Shown one piece after another: positions 3,886 through 42,150 of a stretch of 64,000 nt of DNA. The first letter of the stretch is position 1. Every line of letters begins with the position of its first letter. A program made the translations under genes and the position numbers. The notes under the pieces are model-generated. The model saw only the letters and a program-made list of their open reading frames with translations. It was not told the DNA's origin and did no database searches. This stretch comes from Octopus vulgaris (taxonomy: Eukaryota): positions 17,546,001-17,610,000 of the forward strand of contig OX597839.1 of the NCBI GenBank assembly GCA_951406725.2. The letters run 5' to 3'.

Positions 3886-3888
3886 CAA

Positions 3889-4278
3889 TGTACATTTAAA
3901 CACATTAAAAGGTTTCCATCATAGGACTCCCTTACACTAGAAGGAACTGCTAAAGTCCAATCCACTAATTAGGGATAAATTCTCAAAGGGAATGAAAAAT
4001 AAAAGCATTTACCGGCTATTTCCTGGACCATGGTTTCTGACATTTTTAGCAAATAAAATAATTTGCTAGGCGAAGTCTTTGTCAACAGGTACGCCAAGAT
4101 TAAACATATAAAAACATATAAAAGAGTCAGAAACTATGGTCCAGGAAATACATGGTAAATGTTTTTATTTTTCATTCCCTTCAAGAATTTATCCCTAATT
4201 AGTGGTTTGGACTTTAGCTGTTCCTTCTAGCATAAGAGAGTCCTATGATGGAAACCTCTTAATGTGTTTAAATGTACA
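3889..4278. repeat. Inverted repeat with arms of about 152 bp, flanked by (TA)n
   Basis: 3889-4041 pairs with 4126-4278. The mirror ORFs 3741- and 4202+ share WTLAVPSS.RESYDGNLLMCLNVH. Confidence 0.92.
4022..4089 (-). ncRNA. Decayed hammerhead motif
   Basis: Minus strand reads cctg TTGACAA a gac...tagcaaat/atttgcta...gtc a GAAA CCATGG TC cagg. Stems, palindromic stem III and GUC site are kept; the CUGANGA box carries two transitions. Confidence 0.55.
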
Positions 4279-4283
4279 CACAA

Positions 4284-4372
<89 letters not shown>

Positions 4373-4404
4373 CCAAGAAAAACAGCAACAAGAATGGATC
4401 GGTA

Positions 4405-4494
4405 GATTAGTACAATTGTTTCATACTGAAAACATTTAATTTCAAGCTGCAAATATTACAGCAAATATAATGTCAAGTATTCATCAGCTAAATC
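4405..4494 (-). ncRNA. Second, inverted copy of the same hammerhead motif
   Basis: Near-exact reverse complement of 4750-4839 (tcatcag at 4481-4487; gtacaattgtttc at 4410-4422). Confidence 0.78.
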
Positions 4495-4749
4495 ACATAT
4501 AGGTTTTCCATATATTCTTAGAGAGTGTAAATATCCTTATGAAGTTATAGGAGTGAGTTCCATGAATCTGAAGTAAGATTCCAAGCAGACTATATATGTT
4601 TTCCAACAATACAAAGTTTTTAAAATGATTATTAACATCCCAGAGAAGATTAATCTACTCATAAAAATGTGGGTATAAGTTCCAAGAGGCATGAGGAAAG
4701 ATGCTGGTCATACCACGGTTAAGTTTGCATATATGGAAAACCTATATGT

Positions 4750-4839
4750 GATTTAGCTGATGAATACTTGACATTATATTTGCTGTAATATTTGCAGCTT
4801 GAAATTAAATGTTTTTAGTATGAAACAATTGTACTAATC
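4750..4839 (+). ncRNA. Type I hammerhead ribozyme motif with intact core and long stem II
   Basis: Stem I ttag/ctaa (extendable to gat-ttag/ctaatc), CTGATGA at 4757-4763, stem II atact/agtat enclosing an inner gctgtaa/ttgcagc hairpin, GAAA at 4822-4825, palindromic stem III ACAATTGT, and GUA cleavage triplet at 4831-4833. Confidence 0.8.
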
Positions 4840-5002
4840 TACCGATCCATTCTTGTTGCTTTTTTCTTGGTTATAATCACCCCACATGATTTTATGGTTA
4901 ATACCATAAAGAATCCTGGTGCATCTAAGTTAAGTACAATATTCATTTGAATTCATTTGAATCTTAATTGTTTTTGCTGAAATTATATATATATATATAT
5001 AT

Positions 5003-5047
<45 letters not shown>

Positions 5048-10700: not shown

Positions 10701-11507
10701 CACCTGGAAAAACTGACTGGTCGTAATTTCTAGCTACAAAGTCACACTTCTCAAAGTATCTCTCAGTAGGATTGAACCAAGGGCCAAATGGTTAAAAAGA
10801 GAAAACCACTGAAACAGATATCCATGCCTCAACATTTGTTTAATTTTGTAAATTCTGTTTATGTTGTAAATTTTGTTAATTTTGTTATTTTTGATGGTTA
10901 GGTTTGGTAACGAATATGAGGCAGGTGCAGGAATAATAATATATATTCTTGTAACTATTCAAACAGAAATCTTCTTTTTCAAAATACCTCATTAATTTAA
11001 CAAATTAACTGTAAATATGGTTAAAACATGTTTAATGAAATATTTGTCTGTACTTCAATTTTTACCTTAAATGGGCATGATTTCAAATTCTTTGTTTAAT
11101 ACGTACATATGACTTGTATGTGTGTTGTGTATGTGTGCATACACACATGTGTCTATGAATGCACACATATACTAATAATAATAATAATAAACAGCAGAAG
11201 TTAAAGAATGACCCTAGATCTGAGAGTTTTGTACATTAGCACATATCATTCTCTTTCCCCCTCCCTCCTCCCCCTCTCACTCTCTCTTTCTCTGTTATTA
11301 AATAATATATACATATGTATATATATATATATATATATAATTTAATAACAGTTTGATTTGGCTCCATGTTATTAAATAATATATGTAACTCTTGCTGTGT
11401 TGAATGCTACTTTCTTTCATTTACCCACTCTTGTGTGTGTATACATATATATGTAGGTAAGTATTTATACATATATAATTATGTAGACATACTTTATATA
11501 TATTAAG

Positions 11508-12521
11508 CACGGGTATGGCTATGTTTGGTGTATCAAGAAATACTGTCTCAAAAGTAATGACAGCCTTTGAGAAAGGGGGAAAAACCTCATTGTTGAAACA
11601 AAATTCTGGAAGAAAACCAAAACTTTCAGATAGGAACCCTCACACTCTTATGCGAATTGTTAGAAGGATCACAAAAGTACAGCTCCCAAAACTACTGCAG
11701 AAGGTAATGGCCACCTCAAGAACCCAGTTTCTACAAAAAATGTTCACTGGGAGTTGCACAAAGCTGGATTTCATGGGAGGGCAGCAATCAGAAAACCACT
11801 ACTTTCAAAAACAAACTTTGTAAAACATTTAGAGTGGAGTAAAAGACTACAGAATTGTCCCTAGAGCAGTGGAAGAATGTTATTTACTTGAACAAATCAT
11901 CCTTTACTTTATTTCTAACCACCAGCCAAGTATACGTGTGGAGACAGCCAAAAGAAGCATTTGACCCAGACTGCCTTTTTCCAACTGTTAAACATGGAGG
12001 AGGATCTGTGATGATCTGAGGTGCTATATCTTGGAAATCCAGCGGGCCAATGGTTTCCCTTCATGGCAGAATTAATAGTCACAACTATTTAAGCATTTTA
12101 TCTAATCAAATTCATCCTATGGTTGCAAAACTGTTTCCGTAGGTAATCGCAGTCTTTCAGGATGATATTGCACCAATTCACACAGCTAAAGTTGTTACTG
12201 AATGGCATGAGGAGCATTCTAGTGAAGTTGAACATCTTATCTGGCCACCACAGTCCCCAGATCTCAATATTAGTAAACATTTGGGGTGCATTTTAGAAAA
12301 ACAAGTAAGGAGTCGATATCCTCCACCATCATCACTACAAGAACTGGAGACTGTTTTAGCTGAAGAATAGACAAAAATCCTTTCGTACACAATTCAAACT
12401 TTGTATGAGTCCATACATCATAGAATTCAAGCTGTAATTACTCCCAAAGGCAGTCCTACCCCATATTAAAATAAGTTTGTTTGAAATTTTAAGGTATTTC
12501 CATTTTTTTGTCCAAGCCCTG
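11508..12521 (+). mobile_element. 5'-truncated, inactive Tc1-family transposon with right TIR
   Basis: Peptide motifs FGVSRNTVSKVM (HTH), GRKPKL, PTVKHGGGSVMI, FQDDIAPIH and WPPQSPDLNISKHL, with frameshifts and stops. TIR aggtatttccatttttttgtccaagccctg at 12492-12521. Confidence 0.92.
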
Positions 12522-33609: not shown

Positions 33610-34369
33610 CACACATATATATATATGTATACACATACATATATATACATTTACACACACACACACACACACACAAACATATATAATCATATGAAGGCAC
33701 ATGGCATTGTGGTTAAGGTGTTTCACTCAGGATTGGAATATTACGGTTTCAATTCCTGGACATGGCATTTGTGTTGTGTTCTTGAGCAAAACACTTTATT
33801 TCACATCCATCTGTAATCACTTCAGCAGCTGACATGTGGCACACTGTGCAAAAATACAGACAGTGTCAATTTGATGGATGGCAAGAGCTAATGTACAGCA
33901 CAAATATTTGACCACTGTAAACAATTCATTTGTGCAGGTTGTTCAGCAAAATATTGCAGAATGCTCATCTATCATTTGCAGCAGAGTCCACTGCTATATA
34001 TGTGTGTATATGTGGCATAAAATCAGGAGGTATGAGAGATAGATACACGTTTGTCTAACCATAGACTTCCATTTGGATTACAGCTGTAGCCATGCTCATA
34101 GGTGGAGTCTCTTGTGATAATCACACGATTCTCTGAATCCATATCTTCTACTCTTTTACTTTACACATATATATATTAAAATTTATACGCTACCATTTCA
34201 GCAGATTTTACCACTTGATTTCACACACAAGTTAGGTACTTATGTGATGACCTAAGATGGCGCTCATCAGAGAGGCTTGCATAATAAATTTTAACAAATT
34301 ATCCCACTGTATTGACAAATTTATGAGAGCATTGTTTTCCTGACTTATGAATCCCTAAATGACTATACA

Positions 34370-34890
<521 letters not shown>

Positions 34891-38699: not shown

Positions 38700-39430
38700 T
38701 ATATTTCTACAGTTTGAGTAACTTTCAATGCCAAAGTTTGGTAGAAGGATTTCCAGGATTTTCCAGATGTATATCACTGCATATCCCTCTCGCCTTCATT
38801 CCAGGGAGAAGAGTTTTAATTCTTTCAATCTTTCCCAGTAGTTGATATGTTGCATCAAGACAATTTTCTTAGTGTAGCTTCGTTGGATTGCTTCAAGTTC
38901 CACCGTGGATTTTATATTGTACTGTGACCATTGTTGGGAGCAGGTGAGAACGTGTGTTCTCCAAATCATCATCAATGTCTCCTTTTCTCTTGCTTTGGAA
39001 GTTTGGAGGATCCATCCATCCAGCCGTCTGCATTTTATTACCAAATTGGTAATATGCACTTGGAAAGATGCATCATTGCTCATGTTAATACCCAGGTAAC
39101 ACACTGATTTTGATTCAGGGATTTCAGTTCCTTCTGGGCCAATGTATCCTGTCTTCATGTCATATAGTTTTATGTACAAGTAGCATAGGGCCTGGAATTT
39201 TCCTGCATTAAACTGCATGTTGTTGTCCTCAGTCCACCTATATATTGCATCCAACTGTCGTTGCAGATGTGCAATATTTCCAGGATTTTGTATTGTCTGA
39301 GAGACTTTTGTGTCGTCTGCATAGCTAGCAAGGGTGGCTATCTGAGCAGCTGAGGGTATGTCTGAGAGGGCCACTATGAATATCAGTGGCCCCCAGACAA
39401 TGCCCTGTGGAACACCATCTGCTATTTGTG
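38700..39430 (-). mobile_element. Non-LTR retrotransposon RT fragment (CR1/L2 group)
   Basis: [60 protein letters not shown]. Confidence 0.9.
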
Positions 39431-39630
39431 TTTCCTTGGAGGTGGCTAATGGTTTTAGTATATATATTTTTTAGTTTTGCAGTCAAAAGGAGTTTTTTTT
39501 TTTGGAGCATAAGAAAAAAGTGGTATTTAACTAACCTGGATCTAGTTTTGCTGAATTCAGCTTCACAAAGTTTTATGTAATTTGTTCATATTTTTCCACC
39601 ACCCCCCACTACACACACATATATAGAGAG

Positions 39631-41454: not shown

Positions 41455-41745
41455 TAAAAGAAGTATTCAAAACTGGTTGCCCATAGGAGCTCCTCTATGC
41501 TTATGACCTTGTTCTTATAGCTGCATCTATTGTAGAATAGAAGAGATTTCAGGTGTAGAAGTGATAAATGGAATCAAAGGTCCTTAGAGTTAATTTAGCA
41601 CAGACCAAAGCATTAGAAAGCAGAAAAGCAGACAAATTACTAATTCCTTCAGTGAAATGGTCCTGCTCAATATGTACAAAACATATAGCTACAAATTCCA
41701 TACAGTGTACTCAGTGCAAGCTATGGACACATAAGAGATGCAGGG
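41455..41745 (+). mobile_element. RTE-like LINE RT fragment with Cys-rich segment, abutting the Tc1 fragment
   Basis: GCP*ELLYAYDLVL (decayed YADD), SKVLRVNLAQTK, KWSCSIC...NSIQCTQCKLWTHKRC. Confidence 0.8.
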
Positions 41746-42150
41746 GATTCGTGTATGAGTCCAATATTCCCTATCTGTTTTGGTTTCCTTCCAGAGTTTG
41801 GTTTCGACAAGAAAGTTTTTTTCCCTCTTTCTCAAAGACTGTCATTACTTTTGAGAAAGTACTTCTTGATGCACCAAACATTTCAGCTGTTTTCATTATG
41901 CTAGTGCCTGCCATACAAGCACCAACAATTTGACCTCTTTGAAAGTCCAATAGATCTGTCATTTTAATGAATTTTAATTACCTTTTTCTGATGTATCTGA
42001 AAAGAAACGGCTATTTTAGCAAAACATATTAAGCAACACTAATAATAAATCAAAAAATATAAAAATAAACAAGCTTTTAATGGTGTTATAGATATTTCAA
42101 AATGATGATGCTATGATGTTAGGTGTTTCCATTAATTTGTCCAACCCCTG
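41745..42150 (-). mobile_element. 5' fragment of the same Tc1 family with left TIR
   Basis: ORF MTDLLDFQRGQIVGACMAGTSIMKTAEMFGASRSTFSKVMTVFEKEGK overlaps the 11515 peptide. TIR at 42121-42150 is followed by TA and resembles 12492-12521. Confidence 0.9.

Follow-up and report, generated by a model that had tools for sequence, protein, structure and literature searches.

Inverted insertion of a Penelope-like element within a (TA)n microsatellite

The feature described here lies within the window, the whole 64,000-nt stretch of Octopus vulgaris DNA that was analyzed, and is a non-coding, head-to-head fusion of two copies of a Penelope-like element (PLE), each 5'-truncated and retaining only the 3' end (Table 1). 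The insertion occupies positions 4371-4983 and is thus larger than first reported, with (TA)n arrays on both sides: the original prediction correctly placed both arms but ended the feature at 4872, while the adjoining 4873-4983 also belongs to the element as its tail. The claimed near-identity of the arms holds, as an alignment of 4371-4515 (minus strand) with 4729-4872 (plus strand) contains a single substitution and a single indel in 145 columns, and a second alignment covers 137 nt at 99%. The fold-back is likewise young, the two arms differing by 1.4%, a value that is not unusual among pairs, and its identification as an inverted pair of PLE pseudo-LTRs (pLTRs) is correct. Two types of element end are represented, a short end (S) and a tailed end (L). 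The S copy, read from 4733 to 4371, is 95.9% identical to a natural copy (L031), and its 3' end is followed by 3 extra bases and then by (TA)n. Relative to one another, the arms are unequal in 5' reach (-360 for the S arm vs. -143 for the L arm), the longer arm being the one that lacks the tail, and the spacer is present once because only the S copy extends that far. The locus itself is ordinary, representing one of many copies.

Table 1. Features of the insertion and its flanks, in window coordinates
Feature	Position	Strand	Remarks
(TA)n target microsatellite, left flank	4283..4367		
Short-ended (S) 5'-truncated copy	4371..4733	-	363 nt of element 3' end (3' UTR + pLTR arm)
Hammerhead motif, type I, S copy	4405..4494	-	predicted cut after 4411
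Spacer (element 3' UTR)	4516..4728	-	213 nt, continuous with left arm
Head-to-head junction	4729..4733		5-nt overlap common to both copies
Tailed (L) 5'-truncated copy	4729..4983	+	144-nt arm + 110-nt tail, ~254 nt; 3' end adjoins (TA)n
Hammerhead motif, type I, L copy	4750..4839	+	predicted cut after 4833
Tail	4873..4983	+	homologous to start of 5' UTR ahead of ORF in full-length sister copies
(TA)n target microsatellite, right flank	4984..5047		

Several additional repeats were observed in the window. Directly to the left of the insertion, at 3886-4282, lies an older fold-back with arms of ~202 nt (including flanking TA) that are 89% identical; it sits between (TA)n arrays, is MITE-like, and belongs to a separate high-copy family (3164 first-look candidates) for which neither a hammerhead core nor a linked ORF was found. 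Further features include broken Tc1/mariner transposase pieces (11479-12367, plus strand), a (TA)n array of 520 nt that includes 44 consecutive T residues (34364-34883), a LINE reverse transcriptase (RT) fragment (38799-39470, minus strand), and a PHD-like cysteine motif resembling the segment that follows the RT in L248, together with an HTH fragment (41568-41977). A segment of 91 nt at 42441-42531 matches, at 86%, the beginning of the reference used for family D (taken from L127) and may represent a flanking repeat rather than the element.

Identity of the parent element

Genome searches with the spacer and with the arm each returned more than 1000 first-look candidates, 40 of which were scored in each case, and these figures are not copy numbers. 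At nearly all loci scored the spacer runs directly into an arm; arm and spacer therefore together constitute the 3' end of the element, read on the minus strand of the window. Where copies extend beyond the spacer, they encode an RT, an Asn-rich linker, CxCX5C, a GIY-YIG-like domain, and the arrangement CxxC..E..N..CxH. On the basis of its motif set, the parent element is assigned to the Hydra clade of PLEs, described by Craig et al. (2021; PMC8557442) by the motifs RWK and DKT, a CxCX5C linker, and a GIY-YIG domain with CxxC and CxH.

Within the window's own subfamily (L014, L024), the CxCX5C linker precedes a C-terminal GIY-YIG domain, the Pfam match of which (E 4.6e-4, 20.9 bits) falls slightly below the cut-off of 22.6, and CxxC and CxH flank a conserved E and N in L014, L117, L124, and L127. 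Since genome searches revealed no full-length copy of this subfamily, the N-terminal motifs were taken from a sister family that is ~74% identical to it in the ORF and whose full-length copies contain RWK, DKT, and YRDD, with arm and tail located immediately before the ATG. Specifically, RWK is found near the N-terminus of the family B copy L117, families C and D having RWR and RWA, and the change from DKG to DKT is seen as PADKTG in L117, L124, and L127. Integration is into (TA)n: the first 70 clusters sampled have 110 S or L ends, of which 105 adjoin it. The insertions display the architecture of PLEs: a pLTR upstream of the ORF, 5' truncation, an inverted copy, and a tail at one end. An additional connection, found with BLASTP (E 2e-30), is to a natural copy similar by eye to Hydra-1_Obim. 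The full sister protein matched no Pfam family and no PDB sequence. The unit of ~4.7 kb, with an ORF of 957-1072 aa containing Asn-rich inserts, exceeds the <3 kb toward which Hydra elements tend, this being a tendency rather than a strict property of the clade.

A protein search identified many long open frames of up to 1091 aa, and many copies, L117, L118, L120, L124, and L127 among them, have long ORFs of 836-1072 aa counted from the first ATG. Copies within family B are 97-99% identical to one another. As judged from their sequences, the long-ORF copies represent recently active Hydra-clade families. Their Asn-rich inserts are located between the RT and the endonuclease, as has been reported for rotifer Penelopes. 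Two long family B copies lie head to head in L122 (G000:C2:37616000-37625999), with arm and tail before each, and another Hydra family, Hydra-1_Obim-like by eye, also occurs in inverted form (L140:675-2503, L141:7494-8423). A 7.8-kb tandem array on C13, considered as a possible master locus, was rejected as a segmental repeat holding only a 154-nt piece of the element: at G000:C13:65.41-65.46 Mb (L137-L139) at least 5 units, 98-99% identical, are repeated in tandem, and each comprises the 154-nt arm-tail piece and a LINE RT fragment.

A hammerhead motif with an extended stem II

In agreement with the original prediction, each arm contains a whole type I hammerhead motif, one per strand, composed of CTGATGA, stem II, GAAA, a palindrome, and a GUA site. 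On the plus strand, stem I is formed between 4750-4756 and 4834-4839 and CTGATGA occupies 4757-4763; stem II consists of ATACT (4764-4768) paired with AGTAT (4817-4821; 5 bp) and closes a 48-nt structured extension; GAAA (4822-4825), the 8-nt palindrome ACAATTGT (4825-4832), and N17 (A4833) complete the motif. The mirror motif begins at 4487 on the minus strand, and there the cut is predicted after N17 at 4411. The exact core pattern occurs 123 times genome-wide and its reversed control not once, and its presence is therefore not due to chance. The proposed comparison with Rfam hammerhead models returned no match with either the gathering score or E<=10 as the threshold, a failure for which the long stem II is probably responsible.

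Both arms carry the CUGANGA, GAAA, and NUH core with stems I and II that is characteristic of the PLE dimer type, as well as its short palindromic stem III. The G10.1-C11.1 pair, which is highly conserved but not invariant in that type, is A-U in the window arms, G-U in family B, and G-C in L124 and family D. Across the four families (A-D) the core is invariant except at N7, compensatory changes are found in stem I (AU to GC, UA to CG) and likewise in stem II, and stem III is self-complementary throughout, existing as a perfect 8-mer palindrome in three different versions and as one GU-compatible variant; in the degenerate copy L018, stem II is broken. The compensatory changes in four families provide good evidence of selection for a dimer-type hammerhead in the active lineages. 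The motif is likely the normal dimer-type ribozyme of the element, and it is in full-length tandem transcripts, rather than at the window locus, that it likely matters.

Several data bear on the motif in truncated copies. Folding predicts that a lone arm only rarely adopts a hammerhead-compatible structure (P 0.004-0.011). The 19 letters of the core and stem III are exact in 41 of 56 arms, where within-pair divergence leads one to expect ~45 by hand arithmetic; the hammerheads of truncated copies thus show no indication of selection. At the predicted cut site, ~6 of 186 5' ends fall within a 3-nt span as compared to ~4 expected from local density, in a hand count confounded by a GTAC palindrome.

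Further hammerhead-like cores, embedded in unrelated sequence, were observed in the fetched loci (L127:7302, L127:750, L128:462, and L140:9085 on the minus strand; L123:717 on the plus strand), which suggests that the genome contains more ribozyme-bearing families. For the family at hand, the data add a hammerhead variant with a stem II domain of 51-60 nt that is missed by Rfam and for which intact full-length sister ORFs exist in the same genome.

One short and one tailed end in each resolved pair

The family has two fixed 3' ends, S at the end of the arm and L 110 nt further, and both lie at TA-rich words of the tandem RNA, where pairing with a (TA)n primer would be possible. Exact junctions of the two kinds are about equally common genome-wide (79 S and 85 L). 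Among these 164 matches, 20 pairs lie within 5 kb of one another, and all 20 are head-to-head combinations of S and L. A sample of 172 clusters, which includes 100 of 103 further junction sites and is enriched for young, query-like copies, contains 98 S+L pairs and no S+S or L+L pair. The remaining clusters comprise 48 single arms for which no partner was found, 11 complex arrangements, 9 single arms with a short stub of the opposite end type, and 5 pairs and 1 single arm with an unassigned end. Two-armed insertions with one end of each kind consequently number 107, as against 0 with two ends of one kind. Family B copies in which both ends are clear (L117, L118, L120) also combine S with L, and L119 ends at a third site.

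The internal ends of the copies vary. In 93 simple pairs, the S copy extends further 5' than the L copy in 43, the reverse holds in 25, and the two are of equal reach in the remaining 25; several of these symmetric junctions are at palindromes, such as the stem III 8-mer and GATC. By raw count, 56 junctions overlap by 1-10 nt, and 10 longer overlaps of 15-44 nt probably reflect over-extension by BLAST. A whole hammerhead is present in both arms of 28 simple pairs and in one arm of 15, so that fold-backs with two hammerheads are common in the genome. Within the 28 double-hammerhead pairs, arms differ by 2.3%, whereas arms of different pairs differ by 7.9%; of 325 diagnostic sites, 317 are in agreement within pairs where ~180 are expected, the columns being linked rather than independent. 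The two arms of a pair stem from one sequence variant, and in 16 of the 28 the partner is the nearest or tied-nearest arm. Gene conversion could account for part of this concordance.

Inverted pLTRs, pairs of hammerheads on opposite strands, tails at one end, (TA)n targeting, and pLTR hammerheads are already in print. Neither a counted rule of one S and one L end, nor the window's family, nor the variant with the long stem II was found in the openly accessible literature searched.

Probable origin in two coupled reverse transcription events

Taken as a whole, 4371-4983 is a 5'-truncated, head-to-head insertion of a Hydra-clade PLE into (TA)n that probably arose via two coupled RT events, a mechanism that we infer from end products only. 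The GIY-YIG endonuclease would nick both strands of the (TA)n target, and the two target ends would serve as primers on the RNA at different TA-rich sites, one at S and the other at L. From there, the two cDNAs would copy the same upstream region of one uncleaved RNA, stop early, and be joined by microhomology or at a palindrome. Both window arms extend through the predicted cut site, and two hammerheads would be present because each cDNA passed the motif, which ends ~35 nt upstream of S. The occurrence of 98 S+L pairs with no S+S or L+L pair favors two coupled priming events on one RNA.

The alternative that survives best, although it is rather unlikely, holds that both cDNAs start at L and that the endonuclease trims the tail from one arm while resolving the intermediate. 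It predicts the very pattern observed, namely one tail per insertion with either arm the longer, and is consistent both with the suggestion in PMC8557442 that tails arise from endonuclease-mediated resolution and with earlier work, cited in PMC11167929, according to which the tail is needed for endonuclease recognition. Arguing against trimming are the direct mapping of RT starts to both ends of the tail in PMC11167929 and the location of S and L alike at TA-rich words able to pair with a (TA)n primer.

A second alternative, in which a single cDNA or an antisense RNA folds back at a palindrome or microhomology and primes its own extension into the inverted arm, was proposed for rotifer Penelopes (PMC3846280), fits the 25 of 93 symmetric junctions and their palindromes, and can account for full-length copies in which a tail lies inside the 5' pLTR. 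Self-priming, however, cannot yield a short arm that extends beyond the tailed one on the 5' side, and the short arm is the longer in 43 of 93 pairs, that of the window included. As S reaches further in 43 pairs and L in 25, fold-back copying of a single cDNA is ruled out as the sole route; it is an improbable origin for this insertion and could be a minority route in the family. Finally, an origin as a retrozyme, or as a MITE-like DNA transposon whose terminal inverted repeats bear hammerheads, is scarcely credible in spite of the inverted arms in TA context and two other loci of similar overall layout, given that junctions and arm lengths vary between copies, the outer ends are unequal rather than forming symmetric terminal inverted repeats of fixed length, copies extend into an RT-endonuclease ORF, and the window locus holds no array of the tandem head-to-tail monomers, each with a hammerhead, that constitute a non-LTR retrozyme (bioRxiv 10.64898/2026.07.22.740005), copies here being inverted or dispersed.

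Coupled priming by the PLE would differ from the twin priming of LINE-1 in that both PLE cDNAs copy the same RNA segment. A broader, tentative proposal, for which the odds are close to even but fall somewhat short of it, is that PLEs integrate by obligatory twin priming: one ribonucleoprotein (RNP), probably a protein dimer on one RNA, would assign one cut strand to the S start and the other to the L start, such that every two-armed insertion receives one end of each kind, and the conserved long stem II may help to form a protein-binding site that positions both starts. If true, obligatory twin priming would explain inverted pLTRs and one-sided tails as a single step. The family offers a large, clean sample with which to study how PLEs finish integration, and the strict rule is testable in an existing in vitro system.

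Antisense masking and the host context

The antisense arm is transcribed first from either direction, as the original prediction pointed out. The further suggestion that this arm could mask the ribozyme is physically likely if the locus is transcribed, with the full fold-back predicted at approximately -280 kcal/mol on either strand as compared to approximately -13 kcal/mol for the ribozyme fold, but masking finds no support as the reason for which the insert is tolerated. Masking upon read-through would likely be a by-product.

A selected role, in which the antisense arm silences the ribozyme within a host intron and dsRNA is produced, is a very improbable reason for retention of the fold-back. 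The antisense-first order on either strand, the stability of the predicted duplex, and the exactness of both cores are compatible with such a function; the architecture and the intact cores nonetheless follow from the mechanism of insertion and the young age of the copy. Moreover, the rate at which cores are lost is close to background (exact in 41 of 56 arms), unpaired arms are common (in 48 of 172 clusters a search for a partner arm found none), in 65 of 93 simple pairs at least one arm is missing a complete hammerhead, and the hammerhead fold of a lone arm is predicted to be rare even without an antisense partner.

With regard to the host, the 150 longest of the window's 288 candidate frames yielded no host exon above the Pfam cut-off; the scan returned only mobile-element domains, the PHD-like match, and weak sub-threshold matches. 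Contigs from 4 presumed RNA runs cover pieces of the family, none spanning 4371-4983, and this coverage is not locus-specific. Insertions of this kind nevertheless scatter near-perfect fold-backs that would form dsRNA wherever they are transcribed.

Comparison with known systems

The nearest relatives are the Hydra-clade PLEs (PMC8557442), with which the window's family shares (TA)n targeting, a type I hammerhead near the 3' end, and 5'-truncated inverted copies. In the clade data presented there, units are generally <3 kb (~4.7 kb here), listed loop 2 lengths are 3-10 nt (51-60 nt between the core boxes here), and tails are 30-40 nt in length (110-120 nt here). Hydra-1_Obim, the octopus member listed in the supplement of the same study, has a short-loop hammerhead and, judged by eye, differs from the window's family.

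With respect to the ribozyme, the minimal or dimer-type hammerheads of PLEs described by Cervera and de la Peña (2014; PMC4209133) share the type I core and the 2-bp palindromic stem III, while the window subfamily is distinguished by its long, extended stem II and by A10.1-U11.1 in place of G-C. As reported in that study, dimer-type hammerheads have low or no activity as monomers, and pairs on opposite strands, 100-700 bp apart, occur in Schistosoma. The Penelope of Adineta vaga (Arkhipova et al., 2013; PMC3846280) likewise has inverted pLTRs, either of which may bear the only tail, an inverted junction marked by palindromes or overlaps, and Asn-rich inserts in the ORF; it differs in that few copies were described and that these were explained by self-priming on an antisense template.

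The closest mechanistic parallel is Poseidon PAc of Anolis, the protein of which cuts and extends both strands in vitro (Frangieh et al., 2024; PMC11167929). In that system, RT starts at two internal sites flanking the tail, the protein is modeled as a dimer, and hammerhead cleavage is dispensable and protein-assisted. Poseidon PAc and the window's family have in common two internal 3' ends situated around a tail that forms part of the beginning of the following unit, an AT-rich target, and a hammerhead that is uncleaved in most templates of PAc and whose predicted cut site is traversed by both arms in the window. PAc differs in belonging to another clade and in its short tail, and the main text of PMC11167929 presents no per-insertion pairing of start sites of the kind counted in the octopus family.
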